A DNA stretch of 64,000 nt. Source: Candidatus Pelearchaeum maunauluense. GTDB taxonomy: Archaea; Thermoproteota; Nitrososphaeria_A; Caldarchaeales; Caldarchaeaceae. Positions within the stretch are counted from its first letter, which is position 1; the number at the start of each line of letters is the position of its first letter. The position numbers and the translations under genes are program-made. Of this stretch, positions 1,731-59,861 are shown piece by piece. Under the pieces are notes generated by a model, which saw only the letters and a list, made by a program, of their open reading frames with translations, was not told the DNA's origin and ran no database searches. Location: the NCBI GenBank assembly GCA_030059675.1, contig JANVYQ010000006.1, positions 32,001 through 96,000 on the forward strand. The letters run 5' to 3'.

Positions 1731-3377
1731 TTAGCCACTCCTCAATAGGCGGCGCAGAGTCTTCTCAGAAGGGGTTTTGGGTATGGTGTCAACAAACACA
1801 ACATGCTTAGGCGCCTTGAAGCTGGCTAGCCTCTCCCTGCAATATGCTATAAGCTCCTCCTCACTTACTCTCCCTCTATACTCGTCTCTGATGACCACGA
1901 ATGCTTTTGGCACCTCACCATAATAATCGTCCCGCTCAGCTATAACTGCCACATCAACAACCGCTGGGTGTGTTAGTAGGATGTTCTCAACCTCCGCTGG
2001 CCAGACTTTGAAGCCGCCAACGTTAATCAGGTCCTTAACCCTATCAACGAAGTAGAATAAGCCATCCTCGGACATGAAGCCAAGGTCTCCCGTCCTTAGC
2101 CATCCATCGCGGAGCGCTTCCCTAGTCTCTTCAGGCCTGTTCCAATAGCCCTTCATGACCTGCGGCCCGCGTGCGATGAGTTCTCCAACCTCGTTGGGGC
2201 CTAGCCTCTTCCCAGACTCCACGTCAACCACCGCGACCTCCGTGTCTATGGTTGGTATTCCTATGAGGTTGGGCTTGACCTCGCCTATTCCCAAGGGGGT
2301 GAATGTGAGGCATGGAGCAGCCTCTGTAAGCCCCCAACACTCAATCACATCAATACCAGTGAGCATCTTAAACTGCCGCCTTGCCTCAGGGAGCGAAGGC
2401 GCTGCCGCAGACATCCATATACGGACAGACGAGAGGTCATAACGCTTAATCTCAGGATAGCGTGAGAGCGCGCTATAAACTGGAGGAACACAGTAGAAGA
2501 TTGTCATGCGATGCTTCTCTATTGCTTCCAGCGTCTCCCTAATGCTGAAGCGCTCCTGTATGACTATCTTGGCTGCAAGAGCTATAACTGTGTTGAGGCA
2601 CCAGTTGAGGCCGTATATGTGTGAGAGTGGTAGATAGATTAGTAGCGTCTCCCCAGCCTCTTTAAGCTTCCATGTCATAATCTTCTGAGTATTATTCACA
2701 ACGCAATTATAGTGGGTGAGCATGACCCCCTTGGGCGTGCCTGTAGTACCACCAGTATAGCAGAGAAACGCCACATCCTCCTAAGGGTCTATAGCCACAT
2801 CAGGAGCGCCGTTCTTGCTTTCTGCTATAAGGTCGGTAAGCCCGACTAGCTCTTCATCTCCCAGCCTTTCCACAATCATATCCTTAAGCGCTAGGTGTAT
2901 AGCCGGCAAAACATCCTCATACCCAGTAATAATTATCCTCTCCACCGCAGTACCCTTAGCAGCCCGCTTGGCAGCATCAACCAACATGTTGAATGCTACG
3001 AGTATTTTCGCCCCAGAATCCTTAAGCTGGTAATTAAGCTCCATCTCCTTGTATGCTGGGTTGCATGGAACTACGATAGCCCCCGCCTTAAGAGCTCCGT
3101 AGAGACATATAACGAATTGGGGAGAGTTGGGAAGATAAAGAGCAACCCTATCACCCTTGACTACGCCCAGCCTAGATAAGGAGGCCGCAACCCTATCGCT
3201 TGCCCTATCTAATTGTTCATAGCTCAGCTCAACACCCTCATAATAGATAGCGGTTCTCCAAGGATACTTACGCGCAGAATCCCTCAACCTATCATGCAAC
3301 GCCACAACACTATATGACATACGTTGTGGGACATCTCTAAGCCAATACCTCAGCCAAGGACGGTCAGAATCCATCAA
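1731..3377 (-). pseudogene. Long-chain acyl-CoA synthetase (AMP-forming) with an internal stop
   Basis: YTGGTTGTPKG P-loop, WGLTE, RTGDLG motifs; the two ORFs share a frame, separated by TAG at 2781-2783 (IDP*EDVAFL); C-terminal TPSEKTLRR deviates from the usual TxSGKILRR. Confidence 0.88.
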
Positions 3378-17702: not shown

Positions 17703-18149
17703 ATGAAAGAGGGTTATGCATCTATTCTAGCTGCATCACTGGTGTCTGTGGCTGTTATTGCTGTGGGTTTTCTCGTACTGAGCTGGCAGCAGTGCCAATA
17801 CACTACCACGCTTGTAGAAGACGCTGCCCTTAGACGTGATGGTGTTGTGCTAATAAGTAGCGTAGGAAAATGCGGAAGCCTGGAAAAGCCTACAATAACG
17901 TATAAAAGGGCTGGAGAATACCTAATCCTAACATACAGCGAGCCAGCTAACAATATCTGCTACCGCCACATCATAGAGAGTGTCAAAACCCAGGAAGGAG
18001 ATACGCCGCTAATTAGGATAGAGCTACGCCTAGTAGAGACGAGCGAGGCCTGTGTTATGTGCGTAGGCTACATAACAACAACACTCACTATAGGCCCGCT
18101 GCCCGAAGGGGCGCGGGTGTATGTTAATGGCTTATTGGCCGCTGCGTAA
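17703..18149 (+). CDS. Membrane-anchored Cys-containing extracellular protein (weak PrcB-like resemblance)
   Basis: N-terminal TM, five Cys including ACVMCVG, TATA-like element upstream. Confidence 0.65.
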   Translation: MKEGYASILAASLVSVAVIAVGFLVLSWQQCQYTTTLVEDAALRRDGVVLISSVGKCGSLEKPTITYKRAGEYLILTYSEPANNICYRHIIESVKTQEGDTPLIRIELRLVETSEACVMCVGYITTTLTIGPLPEGARVYVNGLLAAA

Positions 18150-18161
18150 AAGGCTTATATA
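18145..18161 (+). promoter_or_regulatory. BRE/TATA promoter of the aromatic amino acid operon
   Basis: cgtaaaagg followed by CTTATATA (18154-18161); expected TSS near 18183-18187, just upstream of the leader SD. Confidence 0.65.
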
Positions 18162-18201
18162 GAAAAAGGGAAATCAAACAAAACACGACCAGGAGGTGCG
18201 C

Positions 18202-18276
18202 GTGGTGAGGGCAGTAGGACTAACCTGTACAGGCTTTAGCGCCTTCACCACGTTTAGCTATTATTATCGCTGGTAA
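18202..18276 (+). CDS. Putative Phe/Tyr/Trp-rich attenuator leader peptide M(V)RAVGLTCTGFSAFTTFSYYYRW
   Basis: SD GGAGGTG at 18192-18198, GTG at 18202 or 18205, TAA at 18274-18276; 7 of the last 13 codons are aromatic; lies in the 5' leader of the shikimate operon. Confidence 0.8.
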   Translation: MVRAVGLTCTGFSAFTTFSYYYRW

Positions 18277-18335
18277 GCCGCCTCCGGTTTCGGTTCTTGT
18301 TTGTTCCTTTTTCTCCGTTTCTGGGGGGTGGTTTT
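18277..18335 (+). promoter_or_regulatory. Putative attenuator: anti-SD segment, U-rich tract and ask SD
   Basis: GCCGCCTCC (18277-18285) is complementary both to the ask SD (18324-18332) and to the leader SD; T-rich tract at 18294-18314. Confidence 0.6.
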
Positions 18336-19559
18336 ATGGGCAAAATAGTTGTAGTGAAGTTTGGTGGTTCTGTCCTCTCCGATGAGCGAAGCATAGAACG
18401 CGCAGCTAGGTGGTTGAAGGGTCTCCGTGATAAGGGCTTAAGCCCTGTTGTCGTCGTTTCGGCTCTACGCGGCGTAACTGATGAGCTACTTAAGACAGCA
18501 CAGCGCCTAAACCCCGAAGCCCCACCTGAGCTCATGGATGAAGTACTCGCCATGGGCGAGAGAACCAGCGCGAGGCTCTTCGCATTAGCCCTAACCAGAG
18601 AAGGCGTGGACGCCCTCGTGGTAGACCCAGACTCTACGCTATGGCCTGTTATAACCGACGAGAAACACCTAGACGCTACGCCTATACTGGACGAATGCAG
18701 GAGAAAAGCCTCCGAGGGTCTTCTGCCAGAGATTGCGGCAGGTAGGGTTCCAGTGGTCTGCGGCTACATAGGGGTATCCAAGACTGGGCGTATAACCACG
18801 CTGGGACGTGGGGGAAGCGACACTACAGCGGTTCTCCTAGCCAACTGTCTAGATGCCGAGGAGGTCGTCTTGGTGAAAGATGTGGGCGGGATACATTCGG
18901 CAGACCCGCGGAAGACACGAGAAGCCGAGGTGATAGAAACCATGAGCGCCTCTGAGGTTCTCCAGCTAACCACCGGTGGCGCCAAGGTGCTCCACGCAAA
19001 AGCGCTACGCTATATGAATGACAGTATGAGAATACGGGTAGGGACTCTTGAATCCCTTGAAGAAGGCGGGACGCTCATAACAGCTTCAGGTATGCCAAAA
19101 CTGGAGGTGGTGGCTACCCACGATAACGTGACGATGGTTACTATAATTGGTAAGGATATGGGAGAGCCTTCGAAATTGGCGAAAATGGTGGAAGCCCTCG
19201 TGGAGGCTGACGCGAACCTTTTGGCAGCGTCAATAGAGGAGAACTCGCTAATAATATACTTGGATGGTGATGGTGATGTGGTGGAGAAACTGCATGACCT
19301 TCTCGTATCCAGCAGGCTTGGGAAGGCGATAAGCCACTTCCCAAACCTCAGTATGATAAAAGTTTCAGGAACCATGCTGGAGACAAGCCCAGGCGTCATT
19401 CACAAGATAACACAACCCCTAGCAGCGCAGGCGATAAATGTCTATGGCCTTGTTACGATAAGCTCTTCTGTCCGCCTTTTCGTCTCGTCCAAAGAAGCCT
19501 CAAAGGCTATTAACTTGATACGTGACGGGTTGAGGGAGGTAGTGGATGAAGCAGCTTAA
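18336..19559 (+). CDS. ask: Aspartate kinase with C-terminal ACT domains
   Basis: VVKFGGS, VVSA, TLGRGGSDTTA, GAKVLH; start reassigned to ATG 18336 behind GGGGGTGG. Confidence 0.95.
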   Translation: MGKIVVVKFGGSVLSDERSIERAARWLKGLRDKGLSPVVVVSALRGVTDELLKTAQRLNPEAPPELMDEVLAMGERTSARLFALALTREGVDALVVDPDSTLWPVITDEKHLDATPILDECRRKASEGLLPEIAAGRVPVVCGYIGVSKTGRITTLGRGGSDTTAVLLANCLDAEEVVLVKDVGGIHSADPRKTREAEVIETMSASEVLQLTTGGAKVLHAKALRYMNDSMRIRVGTLESLEEGGTLITASGMPKLEVVATHDNVTMVTIIGKDMGEPSKLAKMVEALVEADANLLAASIEENSLIIYLDGDGDVVEKLHDLLVSSRLGKAISHFPNLSMIKVSGTMLETSPGVIHKITQPLAAQAINVYGLVTISSSVRLFVSSKEASKAINLIRDGLREVVDEAA

Positions 19560-20601
19560 GGTAGCTATACTGGGAGCAACTGGGCTGGTGGGCCAGCACT
19601 ACATAAAACTGCTAGCGCGGCACCCTTGGTTTAAGATAGCGACACTTACGGGCAAGGAGTCTGTAGGCAAGAAGTATGCGGAAGCTGTCAGAGGCGAGGC
19701 TCCAGACCCGCCTAAGGAGATAGCCGAGATGGAGGTAGTTCCCACAGAGCCAAAGTATGTTGATGCTGATTTTGTATTCTCCTGTCTCCCTACTGAGGCT
19801 GCTCGTGAGGCTGAGCCGAGTTTTGCGAAGGCAGGCTTCCCAGTGGTAAGTGACGCCTCGGCGCATAGGATGGATGATGATGTGCCGCTCATAATACCAG
19901 AGGTTAATCCAGGGCATCTGAAGCTGGTGGAAGCCCAGAGAAAAAGACGTGGCTGGGATGGCTTTATAGTAACAACGCCAAACTGCACTACCGTAGGGCT
20001 TGCGCTAACCCTATACCCGCTCCACAAGACGTATAACATCAGAAAAGCCGTTGTAACCACCATGCAGGCAGTATCTGGCGCAGGCTATCCGGGGGTTCCC
20101 TCGCTCTCAATAATGGGAAACGTCATACCATACATATCTGGCGAGGAAAAGAAGGTGGAGGTAGAAACCCTAAAGATACTCGGAAACCTTGAGAACAGTA
20201 TAGTAAAACCTGCCTCGCTGGAAATAGAAACTACATGCACACGCGTTCCTACGATAGATGGGCATCTTGAGTCTCTGCATATAGAGGCGGAGCGGCCAAT
20301 AAACGTGGATGAAGCCAAATCCGTCTTGGCCGAGTTTACTTCCGTGCCGCAGGAGCTTAACTTACCAACCGCTCCGCGTAGGCCGATAATCGTGAGGGAG
20401 GAGCAGGACAGGCCGCAGCCTAGGATAGATGCCGACGCAGGGACAGTGCCAGGGATGAGCGTTACGGTAGGCAGGGTAAGGCAGGGAAAGAGGCCGACAA
20501 CTCTTAACCTTCTGCTCCTGAGCCACAACTTAATACGAGGCGCCGCAGGCGTCGCTATACTCACGGCAGAACTAGCGCATCATTACGGGATGCTGAGGTG
20601 A
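19546..20601 (+). CDS. asd: Aspartate-semialdehyde dehydrogenase
   Basis: GATGLVG, PNCTT, QAVSGAG, HNLIRGAAG. Confidence 0.96.
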   Translation: MKQLKVAILGATGLVGQHYIKLLARHPWFKIATLTGKESVGKKYAEAVRGEAPDPPKEIAEMEVVPTEPKYVDADFVFSCLPTEAAREAEPSFAKAGFPVVSDASAHRMDDDVPLIIPEVNPGHLKLVEAQRKRRGWDGFIVTTPNCTTVGLALTLYPLHKTYNIRKAVVTTMQAVSGAGYPGVPSLSIMGNVIPYISGEEKKVEVETLKILGNLENSIVKPASLEIETTCTRVPTIDGHLESLHIEAERPINVDEAKSVLAEFTSVPQELNLPTAPRRPIIVREEQDRPQPRIDADAGTVPGMSVTVGRVRQGKRPTTLNLLLLSHNLIRGAAGVAILTAELAHHYGMLR

Positions 20602-20610
20602 ACTAATGCT

Positions 20611-21393
20611 ATGGTCTTCGGAAAACAGGTTCGCCTAGCAAGAATAACCGAGAACGGCAGAATGCTCTGCATACCCATGGACCACGGCGTAAGTGAAGGT
20701 CCTATTGCCGGTCTTGAGAATATCCATGATATGATGTTTATGCTTGAGGATGCGGGTGTAACGGCTCTACTCGCGCATAAGGGGGTCTTTAGAACGCTTC
20801 CACGTCCCCTAAAGGTTGGAGCAATAATGCATATGTCGGCTAGCACGAAGCTCAGCAGTAAGCCCAACTGGAAAGTCCAGGTGGCGTCAATAGAGGAGGC
20901 AATAAGACTGGGCGTTGACGCTGTTTCGGTCCATGTAAATATAGGAGGCGAGGATGATGCTGATATGTTATCCACGCTGGGGAGAATCGCGGATGTTTGC
21001 GACGACTTACAGATACCTTTTATCGCTATGATGTATCCGCGTGGCCCTAATATCAAGGATGATCGCGATCCTTCTGCGATAGCGCATGTGGCTCGAGTGG
21101 GAGCGGAGCTGGGGGCAGACATCGTAAAGACACCCATGCCGTCGGCTGAGCCTGATGAGATTAGGAAAGTCGTCAGGAGCTGCCCTGTACCTGTGGTGGC
21201 TGCTGGCGGGCCAAAGATGGAGCGCGACGAGGATGTTCTAAGGCTAGCGTGGGCGGTTATCCAAGGCGGCGGCATGGGAATAACCTTCGGTAGAAACGTC
21301 TTCCAACACAGCAGGCCGCGGCAGATTGTAAAGGCGCTCCGCGAGGTTATCTTCAACGGCAAGAAGCCTGAGGAGGCTTTACAAGTGGTATGA
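20611..21393 (+). CDS. aroA': 2-amino-3,7-dideoxy-D-threo-hept-6-ulosonate synthase (DhnA-type aldolase)
   Basis: PMDHG, MMYPRG, AELGADIVKT, GRNVFQH; directly upstream of DHQ synthase II. Confidence 0.9.
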   Translation: MVFGKQVRLARITENGRMLCIPMDHGVSEGPIAGLENIHDMMFMLEDAGVTALLAHKGVFRTLPRPLKVGAIMHMSASTKLSSKPNWKVQVASIEEAIRLGVDAVSVHVNIGGEDDADMLSTLGRIADVCDDLQIPFIAMMYPRGPNIKDDRDPSAIAHVARVGAELGADIVKTPMPSAEPDEIRKVVRSCPVPVVAAGGPKMERDEDVLRLAWAVIQGGGMGITFGRNVFQHSRPRQIVKALREVIFNGKKPEEALQVV

Positions 21394-22409
21394 AGCGGGT
21401 AATTATAGCGTTCAATAAATGGGATGAGCAGCTCGTACAGAAGGCAGCGAGGCTGGGGTTTAGGGAGTTTCTGGCCGAAAATCCAGAACAAGCACCGAGA
21501 GATGCTATAATCTATCTGGAGGAGTCTGGGAAGCGTCTCAAGCTAGCTGCAGATGGTAAGAGGGTGGAGGTTCCAGTTGTGCATGTAAAGACGCCCACCG
21601 ACCTTGAGCGTGTGGTTGAGCTGGGCAGGGCTGGGGCTGGAGAGGTGCATGTTAGGGCTGGAGACTGGAAGATAATTCCTCTGGAGAACCTTATCGCTAT
21701 GAAGCGTGGGCTTAAGATAGACGTGATAGCTGAGGCTGGCTCGCCCTCTGAGGCTGAGCTCATGTTTGGGATACTTGAACAGGGTGTTGATGGTGTAGTG
21801 GTGAGGGTAGCAAACGCGGGTGAGTTGGAGCTGATTAATGACGTGGCCAAAGCACCGACAAGCCTCAGACTTGACGAGGCGGTGGTGGAAGAGATAAAGG
21901 ATGTAGGGATGGGTGATAGGGTATGCGTGGATACTGTTGCTGTTCTTGAGTATGGTGAGGGGCTTCTAGTGGGAAGCATGGCGCGCATGTTCTTCCTAAT
22001 ACATAACGAGTCGGTAGGCTCTGCATTTACGTCGCCGAGGCCGTTTAGAGTAAATGCTGGCGCTGTCCATAGCTATGTCCTTATGCCAGATGGTAAGACG
22101 AAGTATCTCTCTGAGATAGGTGCGGGTGATAGGGTGTTGGTGGTCAGCAGTAAGGGGAAGACACGCATAGCTGCTGTAGGGAGGGCGAAGGTTGAGCGCA
22201 GGCCTATGCGGCTCGTAAGAGCGCGGATAGGAGAGAGCTGGGGAGCGGTAACAGTCCAGAACGCAGAGACCATAAGATTCGTAACACCAGACCATAAGCT
22301 CATATCTGTAACCGAGCTAAAGGAAGGAGATAGAATACTCTGCCACATGGCACCTGAGAAAGCGAGGCACTTTGGAATGGCTGTAGATGAGATGATTATA
22401 GAGCGTTGA
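21390..22409 (+). CDS. aroB': 3-dehydroquinate synthase II
   Basis: DWKIIPLENLIA, GDRVCVD, RPFRVNAGAVHSY, QNAETIR, ARHFG. Confidence 0.95.
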   Translation: MKRVIIAFNKWDEQLVQKAARLGFREFLAENPEQAPRDAIIYLEESGKRLKLAADGKRVEVPVVHVKTPTDLERVVELGRAGAGEVHVRAGDWKIIPLENLIAMKRGLKIDVIAEAGSPSEAELMFGILEQGVDGVVVRVANAGELELINDVAKAPTSLRLDEAVVEEIKDVGMGDRVCVDTVAVLEYGEGLLVGSMARMFFLIHNESVGSAFTSPRPFRVNAGAVHSYVLMPDGKTKYLSEIGAGDRVLVVSSKGKTRIAAVGRAKVERRPMRLVRARIGESWGAVTVQNAETIRFVTPDHKLISVTELKEGDRILCHMAPEKARHFGMAVDEMIIER

Positions 22410-22412
22410 AGA

Positions 22413-23096
22413 ATGAAGACAAGACTCTGTGTATCAACCTACGGTAATGATGTCGGAGAGCTGTCGCATAGGATAGGCGAAGCCCTAGACGCTGGCGCCG
22501 AGCTGGTTGAGGCAAGGCTTGACTACCTAAAACTAATAGAGCCAGAGACGCTGGTAAGAGTTCTCAAACCATATGCTGACAAGCTCATAATAACTCTTAG
22601 ACCAAAAAACCAAGGAGGACTATACGTTGGAGACGAAGCCCATAGAGTATCAATGCTCACTAAGCTATGTAGAATATCGCCAGCTTATGTTGATGTGGAA
22701 CTTAATGCGGCAACTCCAACTCTCATAGATAGCATAAAGCGAGAAAATGTGAAAATAATAATCTCTTGGCACGACTATACTAGAACACCTGAGCAGGATT
22801 TTCTAAGGAACCTCTGTGAGAAGGCTCTCACTATGGGTGATGTCGCCAAAATAGTTACGCTCTCAAGTTGTGAAGAAGATAATCTACGTGTGGTTAAGCT
22901 ATACGCCTACTATCCGCCTGAGCGTTTAGTGGCTTTCTGCATGGGTGAATCTGGCAGAGTAACGCGCTTGCTGGCGGTGTGCGCTGGAGCGCCTATCATG
23001 TATGTGTCTCTTGGAGGGAGAGCCACGGCGGCGGGGCAGATTGAGCTGGAAGAGATGAGGAGGCTCAGAGGCTGGGCGCTGGTGAAGAAGGCATGA
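22413..23096 (+). CDS. aroD: Type I 3-dehydroquinate dehydratase
   Basis: EARLDY, ISWHDY, AKIVT, FCMG, TAAGQ. Confidence 0.93.
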   Translation: MKTRLCVSTYGNDVGELSHRIGEALDAGAELVEARLDYLKLIEPETLVRVLKPYADKLIITLRPKNQGGLYVGDEAHRVSMLTKLCRISPAYVDVELNAATPTLIDSIKRENVKIIISWHDYTRTPEQDFLRNLCEKALTMGDVAKIVTLSSCEEDNLRVVKLYAYYPPERLVAFCMGESGRVTRLLAVCAGAPIMYVSLGGRATAAGQIELEEMRRLRGWALVKKA

Positions 23097-23947
23097 AGAA
23101 TAGGGGAAAGATATACGGTGTTATTGGAGACCCTATAGAGCACTCAGTATCGCCAGCCATGTTTAACGCGGTCTTCAGAGAAGCTGGCCTATGGGATAGC
23201 ATATACACAGCCATACGCGTAGCGAGTAATGAACTCCAGCAGCTCGTCAGAGCAATTCGTCTCCTTCCTTTTGGAGGAATTAACGTAACAATACCCCATA
23301 AAGTCAGTATTATGCGTTATCTAGACCTGCTTGACGAGTCTGCAGAAGAAGTGGGGGCTGTTAATACCGTGCATGTGGCTGGTGAGGAGCTGGTTGGCTA
23401 TAATACGGATATGTTGGCCGTCATGAGAGTACTTAAGCAGTTTAAACGCGCTGGAGACGGGGCTGTTGTTCTTGGATGCGGAGGTGCCGCCAGAGCCGCC
23501 GCCATAGCGCTCAGAGAACTATCCATCAATAAACAGACCTTCGTTGGCAGAAGTAGGAAAAGAATGCGGGAGATGAAGAGATTCACCGCAAGTCGCGGGA
23601 TTGACGCAGAAATCATAAGCTTTCAAGATTCCAAACTAAACAGCGTCCTTGAAAAAAGTAGTGTTATAATAAATGCAACACCAGTAGGAATGTATCCAAA
23701 TGTTAAGAGCACACCTATATATTCCTCGTTAATACCGCGCGGTGCTGTCGTATTTGATATGGTCTATAATCCAGAGGAGACTATGCTACTCAGAGCTGCC
23801 AAGCGAAGGGGAGCGCGTATAATCGGTGGGTTGGAGATGCTGGTGACGCAAGCTGAGGAAGCTTACCGTATATGGTTTGGTAGCCGCGCGCCGCGTGATA
23901 TTATGATGAGGGCTGCACGGAACGAGTTGAGGAGGTTTAAGAAGTGA
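23093..23947 (+). CDS. aroE: Shikimate dehydrogenase
   Basis: HSVSP, NVTIPHK, GAVNT, NTD, NATPVG, DMVYNP. Confidence 0.96.
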   Translation: MKNRGKIYGVIGDPIEHSVSPAMFNAVFREAGLWDSIYTAIRVASNELQQLVRAIRLLPFGGINVTIPHKVSIMRYLDLLDESAEEVGAVNTVHVAGEELVGYNTDMLAVMRVLKQFKRAGDGAVVLGCGGAARAAAIALRELSINKQTFVGRSRKRMREMKRFTASRGIDAEIISFQDSKLNSVLEKSSVIINATPVGMYPNVKSTPIYSSLIPRGAVVFDMVYNPEETMLLRAAKRRGARIIGGLEMLVTQAEEAYRIWFGSRAPRDIMMRAARNELRRFKK

Positions 23948-24813
23948 AAGGCTACGCAAAAGCTTTTGGCGCTGTATCAATAGTTAATGCAATAGCAGCA
24001 GGCCGCGGGTCGGCTTTAGGAATAGACCTATACACCGAAGCTAGTGTGGAGATAACCAATAAAACTCAAGACATAATTTTAAAGTCTGAGAATAATATTG
24101 GAGATTCTTCTCTTACGCGTGAAGTTTTTAGAATTATCGCCGAGAGGATAGGCTTGGCGGATGTTGGAGCGCTGATAAGAACCTCCTCCAACATCCCTGT
24201 AGCTGTGGGGCTTAAGAGTTCCAGCTCCTCGGCAGTAGCTATTGCTTGCGCAGTTCTTGACGCTGCGAGAGCCAGGATGCAAGATGAGGAGCTCTTATCC
24301 CTGATAGCAGAGGCTTCCTTAAGGTCGGGGACATCAATTACAGGAGCTATGGATGACGCTGCTGCATGTATGCTTGGAGGGCTTGTAATAACCGATAACA
24401 TAGGTAGAAAGCTCTTAAAACGGGTTGAAATACACGACCGCCTCTATGCGGTTATACACATACCCGAGCAGCAAAGAATATTCACACGTGACTTTAGAAA
24501 AGAGTTGTTATACCCTGTGAAGAGGCTGGTTGAGGAGGCGTTTAGGCTTGCATTAGAGGATAGGTACTGGGATGCGATGACGCTAAACGGCCTGCTCCAC
24601 GCGGCGGCGCTCTCCATCCCAGTAGCACCAGCGTTAGCCGCGTTAAGAGCAGGCGCCTTGGGGGCTGGGCTATCTGGAACAGGCCCCGCAACAGCTGCGA
24701 TATGCACAACAGACAAACTAGATGCCGTTAGAGAAGCCATGGAAGAGTATGGTGGTATGGTAATAGTTGCTCAGGTGAGCAATAAACGTGCAATAATTGG
24801 TGGCGGGTTTTGA
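23944..24813 (+). CDS. aroK: Archaeal shikimate kinase (GHMP family)
   Basis: SIVNAIA, GLKSSS, ITGAMDD, GLSGTGP. Confidence 0.94.
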   Translation: MKGYAKAFGAVSIVNAIAAGRGSALGIDLYTEASVEITNKTQDIILKSENNIGDSSLTREVFRIIAERIGLADVGALIRTSSNIPVAVGLKSSSSSAVAIACAVLDAARARMQDEELLSLIAEASLRSGTSITGAMDDAAACMLGGLVITDNIGRKLLKRVEIHDRLYAVIHIPEQQRIFTRDFRKELLYPVKRLVEEAFRLALEDRYWDAMTLNGLLHAAALSIPVAPALAALRAGALGAGLSGTGPATAAICTTDKLDAVREAMEEYGGMVIVAQVSNKRAIIGGGF

Positions 24814-26096
24814 TAACTGAGATAAGAAGAACATGTATTGATGGCGAGATAACCGTACCACCTAGCAAAAGCTATACCCACAGAGCAGTAGCTTTGGCGC
24901 TGCTGGCAGAAGGCGAATCCTATATAGAACGGCCACTAATATCAACAGATACTGAAGCAACAATCCATGCAGCAAAACAGTTAGGAGCCAACATAAAGAT
25001 GAAAGATAACTTACTCGTTACTACTGGGCGTAAACGCCTAAGATGCCCCGAAGACGTTATAAACGCAGAGAACTCTGGAACAACGCTACGTTTCTTCACC
25101 GCCATAGCTGCCTTGGCTGAAGCAGGTTATACTATCATAACAGGCGACGAAAGCCTCAGACGACGGCCTATGGATGCTCTTTTGGGCGCTCTTACAAAGC
25201 TGGGAGTTAGCTGCTGGTCATCTAAGGGTGATGGAACTGCACCGATAATAGTTAGGGGAGGTGGTATAAGAGGTGGTGAGACCAGCATAATAGGCTGGCA
25301 GTCATCACAGTTCATCTCCGCAATACTCATAGCGGGACAGAGAGCAGATGGTATGATAACACTACGTGTGGGAGGTGAGCCAGTCTCCAAACCCTACATA
25401 GACGCAACAATCGCGATGATAGAGCGGTTTGAAGGATGTGTGGAGAGAAGCGGCTATACGCTCTACACTGTAGGGCATCAGAGAGAGCTTAAAGCAACTG
25501 AGTTTAGAGTCCCAGGAGACTTCAGCTCTGCTTCATTTCACGTAGCCGCGGCATACCTGTCTGACGGTAGCGTTATGCTAAAGGGTCTGGATAAGAATCT
25601 ACCCCAAGCTGACGCAGCTATTCTTGACATAGCGTCAAAGATGGGCGCTGATGTGAATTGGTTATCTGGTAAAGTAGTGGTTAAGGGAAGGGGTACTCGT
25701 AAGCCAATCGAGATAAAGCTACGCGACTCCCCTGACCTATTGCCAGTGGTCGCTGTAATGGCTGCAGCCACACCTGGAACCAGCACCTTAAGAGACGTTG
25801 CACACGCACGCCTCAAGGAGAGCGACAGAATACAGATGATAGCCAAAGAACTGACAAAGCTGGGCGTTAAAACTAAGATTCTCGAAGACGGCTTGGAAAT
25901 AACTGGGCTGGAACAACCCGAAGGAGGTGTAACGATAGACTCCCACAACGACCATAGGCTTTTCATGGCCTTTACCGTGCTTGGCCTAGCATGCAAGAGA
26001 GGACTACGAATAACTGGAGCAGAATCAGCTGGTGTCTCTTATCCAGGATTTATAAACGACCTAACTAAACTCGGCGCCGAAATCCGAACAATTTAG
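24810..26096 (+). CDS. aroA: EPSP synthase
   Basis: PPSKSYTHR, NSGTTLRF, SSQFISA, RLKESDR, DHRL. Confidence 0.97.
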   Translation: MITEIRRTCIDGEITVPPSKSYTHRAVALALLAEGESYIERPLISTDTEATIHAAKQLGANIKMKDNLLVTTGRKRLRCPEDVINAENSGTTLRFFTAIAALAEAGYTIITGDESLRRRPMDALLGALTKLGVSCWSSKGDGTAPIIVRGGGIRGGETSIIGWQSSQFISAILIAGQRADGMITLRVGGEPVSKPYIDATIAMIERFEGCVERSGYTLYTVGHQRELKATEFRVPGDFSSASFHVAAAYLSDGSVMLKGLDKNLPQADAAILDIASKMGADVNWLSGKVVVKGRGTRKPIEIKLRDSPDLLPVVAVMAAATPGTSTLRDVAHARLKESDRIQMIAKELTKLGVKTKILEDGLEITGLEQPEGGVTIDSHNDHRLFMAFTVLGLACKRGLRITGAESAGVSYPGFINDLTKLGAEIRTI

Positions 26097-33684: not shown

Positions 33685-35295
33685 CTAACCGTTGTTGTGT
33701 TGTCCTCCGTCTATTTTTGCGCTGGCTATACCGAGCTTCCTTATTACCGCTAGGTTGTAGGTATATCCGTCAGTAATCGCTTTTAGACTTGCCTCAAGTA
33801 TGTTACGCGAGACCGCTGTAGTAGCCCAGCGCTTCGCGCCAGACATGAACTCTACAAATACACGGACCGCAGCGGCGGTTCCGTCGCCACTATCTATTAC
33901 CGCCACCTTATAGTTTACCAGATGCGTATCCTTGAGTTCTGGGAACTTTCTCAGTAATGCCTTCCTTATAGCCTCGTCAAGTGCATGAACGGGACCAACG
34001 CCCTCACCAATCTCGGTTATAGCTTCTCCATTTACGTCAAGCGAGACTATTGCTTTAGCCATCTGCCTACCTATATCAAACACCTCAACCCACCATGTCC
34101 TTATCTTAAAGAAGTCTAGTCTAACGCCTATTGAGTTGAGGAGTATTAAGCTTACTGTGGCGTCTGCTGGCTCTAGATTATAGCCCAGCAATTCTAGTTT
34201 CTTAATCTCCTCTAATGCTCGTGTAAGCTCGTTCTTGTCTAGAGATAATCCTAGTTTCTGCGCCTGGTATTGTAGTGCAGACCTCCCTGACAGCTCGGAT
34301 ATTGATATTATCCTTTCGTTACCAACCAGCGCTGGGTCTATATGCTCGTAGGTTCGCGGGTGTTTGAGCATCGCATCTATATGCACGCCGCCTTTATGAG
34401 CGAATGCGTGTCTTCCGACAAATGGATGGTATGGACTTAGCTCGCGATTAGATAACTCCGCCACCAACCGCGCGGTCTGTGTAAGCCGTCTTAACCTCTC
34501 AACCCCATCGCCGCCTAAGACTTTGAACCCCATCTTAAGCGCTAGGTTAGGAATTACTTGGCATAGGTCGGCATTACCGCATCTCTCGCCCAAGCCGTTT
34601 ATCGTCCCCTGCACATGTCTAGCACCCTCCTCAACTGCCGCTAGAGTATTAGCCACAGCCACGCCAGAATCGTTATGAGTATGTATCCCTAATGGACATC
34701 CAATCTCTTCACGGACTCTCCGAGTTATCACGCTAAGCTCACTCGGCAACGTCCCGCCATTAGTATCGCAGAGAACAACAACACGCGCTCCCGCATCGTA
34801 AGCGGAGCGTACAACAGAAAGAGCATAGCTGGGAGAGTCTTTAAACCCATCATAGAAGTGTTCAGCATCAAAGATAACCTCTATACCATGACTACGCAGA
34901 TATTCTATTGTATCAGTTATCATGTCGAGATTCTCCTCATCGGTGCAGCGTAGAACCTCCCTCACATGTAGCAGCCATGACTTGCCGAATATGACCGCCG
35001 TGCCTACATCAGCCTTGATTATCGAGTCTAATGATGGGTCGTTGCTTGGTCTAGTATCCTTACGTCGGGTACTTCCAAATGCGGCTATTCTGCTGTGGCT
35101 AAATGAGATATCTTTTGCTGCCTTAAAGAACTCTGCATCCTTCGGATTGGAGCCTGGCCAGCCCCCCTCAATAATATCAATACCCAGCTCGTCCAGCTTC
35201 TCAGCTATGCGGAGCTTTTCATGCAGTGTGAAGGTAACGCCCCTGGTCTGGGCGCCATCGCGTAGTGTGGTATCGAGGGTCTCAACGTAATCGAT
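33685..35295 (-). CDS. cimA: Citramalate synthase (LeuA/CimA family)
   Basis: Frame extends 110 codons upstream of the listed ORF: IDYVETLDTTLRDGAQ...EGGWPGSNPKD...FGKSW; DAEHF, HTHND, GERCGNA, AHKGGVH; no in-frame canonical start. Confidence 0.9.
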   Translation of the reverse strand: MDYVETLDTTLRDGAQTRGVTFTLHEKLRIAEKLDELGIDIIEGGWPGSNPKDAEFFKAAKDISFSHSRIAAFGSTRRKDTRPSNDPSLDSIIKADVGTAVIFGKSWLLHVREVLRCTDEENLDMITDTIEYLRSHGIEVIFDAEHFYDGFKDSPSYALSVVRSAYDAGARVVVLCDTNGGTLPSELSVITRRVREEIGCPLGIHTHNDSGVAVANTLAAVEEGARHVQGTINGLGERCGNADLCQVIPNLALKMGFKVLGGDGVERLRRLTQTARLVAELSNRELSPYHPFVGRHAFAHKGGVHIDAMLKHPRTYEHIDPALVGNERIISISELSGRSALQYQAQKLGLSLDKNELTRALEEIKKLELLGYNLEPADATVSLILLNSIGVRLDFFKIRTWWVEVFDIGRQMAKAIVSLDVNGEAITEIGEGVGPVHALDEAIRKALLRKFPELKDTHLVNYKVAVIDSGDGTAAAVRVFVEFMSGAKRWATTAVSRNILEASLKAITDGYTYNLAVIRKLGIASAKIDGGQHNNG

Positions 35296-59806: not shown

Positions 59807-59861
59807 GCAGCGCGGCGCCTTAGAGCAATGGGTTACCGTAAAATATGAGGCGCCGCGCTGC
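59807..59861. repeat. Perfect 14-bp GC-rich inverted repeat with 27-nt spacer
   Basis: gcagcgcggcgcct (59807-59820) and aggcgccgcgctgc (59848-59861). Confidence 0.9.

Follow-up and report, generated by a model that had tools for sequence, protein, structure and literature searches.

A candidate leader-peptide attenuator in front of an archaeal ask-asd-aro operon

How would an archaeon that makes its aromatic amino acids by the aspartate-semialdehyde route adjust the expression of this pathway to the supply of its end products? The question is raised by a short stretch (positions 18185 to 18360) of a 64,000-nucleotide (nt) segment of contig JANVYQ010000006.1 from Candidatus Pelearchaeum maunauluense; this segment is referred to below as the window, and positions are counted from its first nucleotide. 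The stretch is the leader of an ask-asd-aro operon of the aspartate-semialdehyde route, whose first gene, ask, encodes aspartate kinase. It combines a mini-open reading frame (mini-ORF) rich in aromatic codons with two RNA helices and a U-rich tract, an arrangement that probably switches the aromatic operon on when aromatic amino acids are in short supply. A switch of this kind had been proposed from the nucleotide sequence, and that proposal is called here the original prediction. As to how the switch would work, we are evenly divided on ribosome-mediated attenuation at the level of translation, possibly reinforced by termination through the U-rich tract and FttA, which is nevertheless the mechanism that we favor.

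The leader ORF, its two helices, and the U-rich tract

On the plus strand, a TATA-like element is followed by a putative short 5' untranslated region with a Shine-Dalgarno (SD) sequence, three in-frame GTG codons, a frame of 26 codons, a stop codon, a spacer of 59 nt, and the ask ATG (Table 1). The encoded peptide ends in ...GFSAFTTFSYYYRW and contains three Phe, three Tyr, and one Trp; these aromatic residues (F/Y/W) make up 7 of its 26 residues and 5 of the last 7. Among the 2841 stop-to-stop frames of at least 12 codons found in the six frames of the window, the leader ORF alone has five or more F/Y/W within the last seven residues. What precedes the biosynthetic operon directly is thus a short ORF with its own start signals and with codons for the end products of the pathway, and because the ask-asd-aro operon follows, the leader sits exactly where a sensor of aromatic amino acids would serve. 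A second leader was not found elsewhere in the window, and the leuA-like gene there leaves no room for one. The promoter-like element, a purine-rich stretch resembling a B recognition element (BRE) joined to the TATA-like sequence TTATATAG (18155 to 18162), is placed about 25 to 30 nt upstream of the leader SD and, as read from the sequence, is a putative archaeal promoter. The interval between the TATA-like box and the leader SD (18163 to 18183) is extremely A-rich on the plus strand, and its complement is one of only two minus-strand clusters that reach 15 T in 21 nt.

The first helix, stem 1, closes over the leader start. The original prediction had placed a stem of 12 bp here, and the pairing of 18201-18212 (CGTGGTGAGGGC) with 18241-18252 (GCCTTCACCACG) is indeed present, with 11 Watson-Crick pairs and one G-U pair; G18200-U18253 extends it to 13 bp. 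Such a stem is not random: only 4 uninterrupted stems that are 13 bp or longer, contain no more than two G-U pairs, and span 80 nt or less occur in 128,000 nt (both strands). The stem had also been said to bury the leader start codons. This is true of the GTG codons at 18202 and 18205, whereas the GTG at 18196, together with the leader SD, lies just outside. The hairpin 18199-18254 has a folding energy of -25.9 kcal/mol, while 56-nt background windows average -10.05 ± 4.4 kcal/mol and only about 3 of 3198 are as low (the lowest 0.1% or so), and in the ensemble stem 1 keeps 11.7 to 12.0 of its 12 expected pairs from 37 to 85°C.

The second helix, stem 2, links the end of the leader ORF to the ask ribosome-binding site (RBS). 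The sequence GCCGCCUCC after the leader stop pairs with the ask SD, as had been predicted: 18277-18285 (GCCGCCTCC) and 18324-18332 (GGGGGTGGT) form nine pairs (six G-C and three G-U), and the anti-SD begins right after the leader stop. When 20 to 40 nt of ask coding sequence are included in the folding, stem 2 lengthens through pairing of 18257-18276 with 18334-18355, and both the ask SD and the ask start codon are then paired with a strand in or next to the leader ORF. These pairings are stronger than those of shuffled sequences. The spacer (18277-18317) binds the ask RBS with -17.1 kcal/mol, compared with -12.4 ± 2.1 kcal/mol for shuffled spacers (24 of 1000 as low), and ask ranks second of 49 gene starts in upstream complementarity to its own RBS. 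The last seven codons of the leader with the stop and the next 12 nt form a duplex of -30.9 kcal/mol with positions -16 to +24 of ask; none of 500 shuffles was as low (mean, -18.8 ± 3.1 kcal/mol), and the same test on 26 other gene starts gave a mean of -16.9 and a minimum of -26.4 kcal/mol. The intercistronic segment of the window has a folding z score of -3.8; of 300 shuffles, 1 reached a value this low.

The loop of stem 2 carries the U-rich tract, the single 21-nt window with at least 15 T among 63,980 on the plus strand. Its resemblance to an archaeal oligo-U terminator, which the original prediction had pointed out, holds for a T-richness that is exceptional in this DNA but not for the number of U runs, as there is only one of four or more. 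In archaea the terminator signal is a U-rich 3' end without a hairpin, bound by aCPSF1 (FttA) and recognizable by runs of 4 to 7 U, usually more than one, just before the transcript 3' end; in M. maripaludis, aCPSF1 needs two U4 tracts for efficient binding (PMC8716108). The tract shares with these terminators a U-rich stretch on the sense strand that no strong hairpin precedes (PMC8716108, PMC11616081). It differs from them in its place, as it separates a mini-ORF from the first gene within a 5' leader rather than lying at a gene end, and in having one U5 run rather than two or more U4+ tracts. From its composition, 18294-18314 is possibly a terminator or a site of FttA action. FttA contacts RNA 20 to 36 nt behind the 3' end, and the authors hypothesize that a coupled ribosome excludes it sterically (PMC11616081). 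With the polymerase at 18300 to 18312, the RNA held by FttA would, by arithmetic only, be 18265-18293, from the third Tyr codon to just past the anti-SD. It had further been predicted that quick termination on the leader ORF exposes the tract, which our folding model does not bear out, as nothing in it gives a difference in exposure between the two states. A terminator scan of the leader for a classical hairpin terminator with antiterminator found only weak terminator-like sites, namely, 18275-18290 (six pairs, three of them G-C) and the SD hairpin in two versions; the sequence that comes after stem 2 is the ask AUG rather than a U run.

Aromatic leaders before ask in other archaea

A profile of 33 Ask proteins was compared with genome contigs. 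Among the matches listed, the best loci were 27 to 41% identical, and no Caldarchaeales orthologue was present. Ten distant archaeal ask loci were inspected (L001 to L009 and L035). An aromatic leader precedes ask in five of them, four from Bathyarchaeia (L002, L003, L004, and L006) and one from Jordarchaeia (L001), including all three with a confirmed ask-aro arrangement (Table 1). In these three, L002 to L004, ask is followed by the genes for ADH synthase and 3-dehydroquinate (DHQ) synthase II, and aroD and aroE were also confirmed in L002; the L006 contig ends too early to show the downstream genes, and L001 has no aro genes downstream. No mini-ORF was found upstream of ask in the haloarchaeal loci L008 and L009, in L035 from Nitrososphaerales, or in L005 and L007 from other archaea, where an unannotated ORF reaches the ask start. 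All five leaders have an aromatic run at the C terminus, and their N-terminal parts are variable. A profile built from the leader peptides of the four Bathyarchaeia loci had five matches with an E value of 0.001 or lower in 1.84 billion representative proteins. Four of these (P0121, P0123, P0124, and P0125) are proteins of 28 to 48 amino acids of the same type, such as ...SFDYGFYYYGYFS, with the motif SFDY-x-FYYY..., and the fifth is an unrelated repeat protein. As these four are predicted proteins, gene callers have already picked up such leaders.

The RNA of the Bathyarchaeia leaders is organized in a similar way. For the four sequences, RNAalifold gives a first helix between GAAGC, beside the leader start, and GCUUC, which immediately precedes the aromatic run, and a second helix directly after the stop, the hairpin GCCCAGRAC...GUUCUGGGC (GCCCAG...CUGGGC). 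The layout of the window leader, in which a start helix, an aromatic run, a stop, a helix, and ask follow one another, is thus seen again in a second archaeal class, where the sequences of the helices are different. The spacer between the leader stop and the ask AUG, 59 nt in the window, measures 57 nt in L002, 57 nt in L003, 59 nt in L004, and 56 nt in L006, and 82 nt in L001; the intercistronic folding z scores are -3.5, -4.7, -2.85, -1.7, and +0.3, respectively. The sequence TAAGCC, the stop codon plus GCC (18274-18279 in the window), is the same in all four Bathyarchaeia loci as in the window, although the spacer is otherwise unalignable, and MAFFT and RNAalifold found no common register and no shared pair between the window spacer and those of Bathyarchaeia. 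Runs of T4 to T6 are present in the hairpin loop of three of the four Bathyarchaeia loci. The TATA-like core of the window, GCTTATAT (18153-18162), is found at the matching place before the L003 and L004 leaders (as GAAACGCTTATATTT there), and L002 and L006 have near-variants of it; in L002 to L004 it is positioned about 45 nt before the leader ATG. L002 also contains a mini-ORF of four codons (MVEN; L002:3459-3476) that ends in TAATG, its stop overlapping the ask start, which is typical of termination-reinitiation coupling.

Proposed attenuation and its rivals

We observed directly the sequences, the pairings (with their statistics), the genes of the operon, and the reappearance of the layout in another archaeal class, and from these we infer every dynamic step of the following mechanism of translational attenuation. 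A first ribosome would load on the leader while the RNA is still being transcribed. If charged aromatic tRNAs were scarce, it would dwell on the last codons, with the greatest effect at Trp, and also at Arg and the third Tyr; there it would hold the 5' strand of stem 2, which would make the ask RBS much easier to open and allow ask to be translated. Stem 1 may act as a latch. With a ribosome paused on Phe18253, Tyr1, or Tyr2, its 3' arm would fall inside the trailing edge of that ribosome, and a ribosome stalled early in the run would sit on this arm, so that the leader start would stay open and more ribosomes could follow. With a good supply of aromatic amino acids, the ribosome would terminate and leave, whereupon stem 1 would shut the leader start and stem 2 the ask start; because the 13-bp stem 1 would close the leader start after fast passage, replete cells would stop re-melting stem 2. 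Intrinsic or FttA/aCPSF1 termination would then probably cut untranslated transcripts short, either at the U-rich tract or beyond it. Two other mechanisms, termination-reinitiation coupling across the hairpin and stabilization of the mRNA by the 5' stem, were considered and rejected, as each predicts higher expression under an ample supply of aromatic amino acids.

The effect of ribosome position was calculated with a thermodynamic model in which a ribosome footprint of 28 nt (P-12 to P+15) was masked codon by codon and the cost of making 18322-18341 single-stranded was determined. At 37, 65, and 78°C, this opening cost was 18.7, 10.3, and 7.1 kcal/mol for the free RNA; 15.2 to 16.2, 8.0 to 9.0, and 5.5 to 6.1 kcal/mol with the ribosomal A site on the Tyr codons; and 10.2 to 12.9, 5.7 to 6.3, and 4.7 to 5.0 kcal/mol with the A site on the Arg, Trp, or stop codon. 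The gain from masking at Trp or Arg, about 4 to 4.6 kcal/mol at 65°C, is large in equilibrium terms, and with footprint 3' edges at P+12, P+15, and P+18 the details change while the pattern stays the same. The original prediction that a ribosome on YYY-R-W frees the ask SD is supported in part: the ask RBS becomes easier to open with the ribosome on the Arg, Trp, or stop codon and less so with it on the three Tyr codons, where the anti-SD is not covered; in neither case is the SD fully released, as it stays partly paired. In the model, the direction in which the RBS is released is right for a biosynthetic operon.

Several results weigh against translational attenuation in this form. The Tyr codons, the most conspicuous feature of the leader, lower the opening cost by only 1.3 to 2.3 kcal/mol at 65°C, because the footprint barely reaches the anti-SD: with the A site on Tyr1 to Tyr3, it extends only to 18271-18277, short of CCUCC at 18281-85. 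When the anti-SD is masked, a second CUCC (18313-16) re-pairs with the ask SD, so that at no point does the model leave the SD entirely unpaired; the local TTCTCC/GGGGGG hairpin that forms there has energies of -5.1 and -2.8 kcal/mol at 37 and 65°C, respectively. The minimum free energy (MFE) of the whole 176-nt region is unexceptional (z = -1.42; 16 of 200 shuffles fold as well). In 2000 synonymously recoded variants, pairing was equal or better in 11.5, 52.7, and 15.1% when the codons of the leader, of ask, or of both were changed, and because such recodings pair as well, the coding part of the long helix follows from the encoded amino acids and shows no sign of extra selection. With the 3' end set at 18380, stem 1 is lost at 37°C to long-range pairs with 18370-80 and is restored at 65 and 80°C; the MFE structure thus depends on the 3' boundary chosen.

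The other archaea add to these objections. Masking in the Bathyarchaeia and Jordarchaeia loci, in which the L003 row was one base out of frame, gave no consistent release of the RBS. The Bathyarchaeia hairpin ends 3 to 8 nt before the SD, and the complementarity between the 3' end of the leader and the ask RBS is not significant there (z = -1.0, +1.4, -1.5, and +1.0) or in L001 (+0.7); for these reasons the anti-SD role is not a conserved feature. Because the helix sequences of Bathyarchaeia are conserved, none of their 14 pairs shows a compensatory change. A covariance model of the Bathyarchaeia leaders (R1), run with filters off, had no match at 18200-18340; its four matches in the window (E values of 3.5 to 8.3) are all elsewhere, and among 80 loci only the four training sequences score. 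As R1 misses the window leader, the resemblance between the two groups may be convergent rather than homologous.

The main rival is a purely transcriptional version, which we consider unlikely while giving it more weight than any other alternative. Control would then be mainly transcriptional, with the U-rich tract as a default terminator or an entry site for FttA (aCPSF1) and with stem 2 secondary: a ribosome parked on the aromatic codons would occupy RNA that FttA needs and permit read-through, and once the ribosome had departed, the transcript would end. The tna operon of E. coli follows the same logic. This version accounts for the tract being the most T-rich 21-mer of the plus strand and for the T runs in most of the Bathyarchaeia loops, and it would explain how the SD can lie outside the Bathyarchaeia hairpins. 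By arithmetic with the distances of PMC11616081, a ribosome at Tyr, Trp, or the stop would overlap the stretch 18265-18293 that FttA would hold, and U-rich 3' ends without hairpins are what archaeal termination uses (PMC8716108). Against this stand the presence of only one U run of at least four (U5) where aCPSF1 of M. maripaludis needs two U4 tracts (PMC8716108) and the retention in all five loci of the 3' arm of stem 2, which is made after the tract and is left unexplained. Moreover, stalling normally uncouples translation from transcription and favors termination, the wrong direction unless the geometrical argument holds.

Translational attenuation must also be compared with a three-way competition, likewise raised by the original prediction and in our estimation improbable, in which the anti-SD would pair either with the leader SD (18192-98) or with that of ask; pairing to the leader SD would then be the ON state. 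The alternative pairing exists: 18279-85 can form six Watson-Crick pairs and one G-U pair with 18192-98, and these 7 bp belong to the MFE structure of an RNA that ends at 18350 and to that of the growing transcript for as long as the polymerase is not beyond about 18345. It is a minor conformer of the full leader, comprising the ask RBS and about 20 nt of coding sequence, where its expected pairs number 0.00, 0.11, 1.01, and 1.12 at 37, 60, 75, and 85°C, against 8.97, 8.76, 7.20, and 5.18 for the pairing of the anti-SD with the ask SD. Even while the leader SD is paired, the local CUCC hairpin holds the ask SD, so that this state is not an ON state in the model; and because the pairing is compatible with stem 1 and forms together with it, it is independent of ribosome position.

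A reading that we regard as still more doubtful is that the helices bind a protein or a small molecule, as an RNA-binding regulator or riboswitch would require, and that the small ORF is incidental. Two well-defined helices do recur in two archaeal classes, and TAAGCC is identical in the window and four Bathyarchaeia loci; the loops, on the other hand, are variable and offer no conserved unpaired core. At gathering scores, Rfam has no match in the whole window or in L001 to L004 and L006, the best match to the leader being an unrelated viral element at 22.5 bits, compared with a gathering score of 50. The sole feature conserved across lineages is the terminal run of aromatic codons in an ORF with a start and an SD, which points to reading by a ribosome. 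That nothing here is regulatory, the small ORF having arisen by chance and the folding being that of any mRNA in a spacer between genes, is hardly credible even if the whole-region z score of -1.42 and the lack of a codon-level signal for the long helix are set in its favor, given the aromatic C terminus (1 of 2841 frames), the 4 comparable stems in 128 kb, the duplex that 0 of 500 shuffles equal, the U-rich tract (1 of 63,980 windows), and the finding that 5 of 10 other archaeal loci, among them 3 of 3 with confirmed ask-aro genes, have an aromatic leader upstream of ask.

With translational attenuation retained as the favored mechanism, we think it plausible, if a little short of an even prospect, that these leaders represent a widespread and specifically archaeal class of leader-peptide attenuators, in which a mini-ORF of aromatic codons, set between a helix over its start and a helix that begins at its stop codon, acts on the ask-led aromatic operon. 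This class would be present in at least two classes of Thermoproteota (Caldarchaeales-like archaea and Bathyarchaeia) and perhaps in Asgard archaea, and the position of the ribosome would set both the access to the ask RBS and the FttA-dependent or intrinsic termination at the U-rich tract.

Related systems, the operon, and other features of the window

In bacteria, leader peptides that sense the supply of amino acids are a textbook mechanism. In the classical trp, pheA, and his attenuators, the leader ORF contains cognate codons and the position of the first ribosome decides which of the overlapping antiterminator and terminator hairpins forms, the latter having a G+C-rich stem directly before a U run. 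In erm/cat-type translational attenuation, also bacterial, a ribosome stalled on the leader ORF destabilizes a stem-loop that hides the start of the downstream gene, and the stall is brought about by an antibiotic and the nascent peptide rather than by the supply of charged tRNA. The window leader has no pair of terminator and antiterminator; its strong helix sequesters the RBS instead, and the only hairpin before T-rich sequence ahead of the tract is the weak one of six pairs at 18275-18290. It resembles the erm/cat type in that a stalled leader ribosome would open a hidden start, and differs from it in being archaeal and in a stall that would be set by charged-tRNA supply. The leader would work like the bacterial leader-peptide attenuators of the translational kind and lacks the feature that defines the classical trp, pheA, and his attenuators. 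A trpL leader is described in 10.1101/606483, and erm/cat-type attenuation is treated in PMC5118997 and PMC5499644.

The same logic of translational attenuation has been shown in bacteria for the mycobacterial polycysteine small ORFs (sORFs) of Canestrari et al. (10.1101/834739). These are upstream sORFs with a run of codons for the amino acid of their operon, and they exert translational control without a terminator hairpin, both of which recall the window leader. They differ from it in being bacterial, leaderless, and specific for cysteine, whereas the leader described here is archaeal, has its own SD and a mixture of Phe, Tyr, and Trp codons, and combines an additional helix, which closes its own start, with a U-rich tract inside a loop. 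In the actinobacterial LEU element upstream of leuA, the regulatory codons were proposed to pair with the SD (Seliverstov et al. 2005, PMC1262725), much as the ask SD and AUG are paired here with the codons for Tyr, Arg, and Trp, the stop codon, and the 9 to 11 nt beyond it; that element is bacterial, senses leucine, and folds into a pseudoknot or an alternative hairpin, and a protein regulator was considered for it as well.

Full-text literature searches returned no description of a leader-peptide attenuator in archaea, which does not prove absence, as most subscription journals were outside their reach. If our reading is true, this would be the first ribosome-mediated amino acid attenuator described in the Archaea, and archaeal ribosomes would serve as metabolite sensors on mRNA leaders. 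The leader would also provide a compact natural system for the effects of ribosome position on initiation and on FttA/U-tract termination, and with it a handle on transcription-translation coupling; regulation of the aspartate-semialdehyde aromatic route in uncultured lineages would be explained. The Bathyarchaeia leaders provide an independent set for testing the idea.

The genes from ask to that for EPSP synthase constitute an operon for the common aromatic pathway starting from aspartate semialdehyde (Table 1), a route to aromatic compounds that has been described for archaea (for example, PMC4162585). The ask ATG is at 18336-38, not at 18337. The closest homologues begin with MGKIVVVKFGG. 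The closest Ask proteins are from Nitrososphaerota, "archaeon HR01," and Candidatus Caldarchaeum (57 to 68% identity), and two others are 95 to 96% identical; the N termini of the 60 closest homologues included no upstream read-through that would reveal their leaders.

Table 1. Coordinates of the leader elements and operon genes in the window and of the mini-ORFs upstream of ask in other archaeal loci
Feature	Position	Strand	Description or basis
Promoter-like element	18147-18162	+	Purine-rich BRE-like stretch and TATA-like sequence; sequence reading
Leader SD	18192-18197	+	GGAGGT, 4 and 7 nt before GTG 18202 and GTG 18205; sequence reading
Leader ORF	18196-18276	+	24 to 26 codons; in-frame GTG at 18196, 18202, and 18205; stop TAA at 18274-76
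Stem 1, 5' arm	18200-18212	+	Covers leader start codons 18202 and 18205
Stem 1, 3' arm	18241-18253	+	Reaches one base into Phe codon 18253, directly ahead of the Tyr run
Putative sensing codons	18253-18273	+	TTT AGC TAT TAT TAT CGC TGG (F S Y Y Y R W)
Extended stem 2, lower 5' strand	18257-18276	+	Ser/Tyr/Arg/Trp/stop codons; pairs with 18334-18355
Anti-SD strand	18277-18287	+	GCCGCCTCCGG, directly after leader stop; pairs with 18321-33
U-rich tract	18294-18314	+	Loop of stem 2; 15 T in 21 nt, T5 at 18308-12; T count
Second anti-SD-like sequence	18311-18316	+	TTCTCC; local hairpin with GGGGGG 18323-28
ask SD strand	18321-18333	+	CTGGGGGGTGGTT; 3' arm of stem 2 core
Extended stem 2, lower 3' strand	18334-18355	+	ask ATG and first six codons or so
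ask (aspartate kinase)	18336-19559	+	First gene of operon; NCBIfam
asd	19546-20601		NCBIfam
ADH synthase	20611-21393		NCBIfam
3-Dehydroquinate synthase II	21390-22409		NCBIfam
aroD	22413-23096		NCBIfam
aroE	23093-23947		NCBIfam
Archaeal shikimate kinase	23944-24813		NCBIfam
EPSP synthase	24810-26096		NCBIfam
Mini-ORF, L002 (Bathyarchaeia)	L002:3333-3416		MSNHADSQTSWQMRFFSFGYYFYYYFR; ends in YYFYYYFR
Mini-ORF, L003 (Bathyarchaeia)	L003:3348-3434		...ALQFSSFDYYFYYYHFP; ends in YYFYYYHFP
Mini-ORF, L004 (Bathyarchaeia)	L004:3325-3414		...AWQRDSFDYGFYYFGYFP; ends in GFYYFGYFP
Mini-ORF, L006 (Bathyarchaeia)	L006:2845-2916		...VCFAYQFFYFYQ; ends in QFFYFYQ
Mini-ORF, L001 (Jordarchaeia)	L001:3114-3149		MMWMDYFFMHN

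No tRNA was found in the window, and as Rfam has no match there, the window contains no rRNA from which the anti-SD could be read. Just upstream of the leader promoter, an ORF of 148 amino acids (17703-18149) has no NCBIfam or Pfam match and includes a hydrophobic N-terminal segment. On the minus strand, the leuA/homocitrate-synthase-like gene (33685-35295) is open for 536 codons from stop to stop; its first listed start yields a protein of only 426 amino acids that misses about the first 100 positions of the HMGL domain, and for this reason the true start is probably further upstream. Two adjacent minus-strand ORFs, at 1731-2774 and 2781-3377, match the C-terminal (profile positions 164 to 384) and N-terminal (2 to 126) parts of one AMP-binding enzyme, which suggests a split or frameshifted acyl-CoA synthetase gene. 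The strongest inverted repeat of the window is at 59807-59861 and can be read on both strands; its G+C-rich stem of 16 bp (GCAGCGCGGCGCCTTA / TGAGGCGCCGCGCTGC) encloses a loop of 23 nt.

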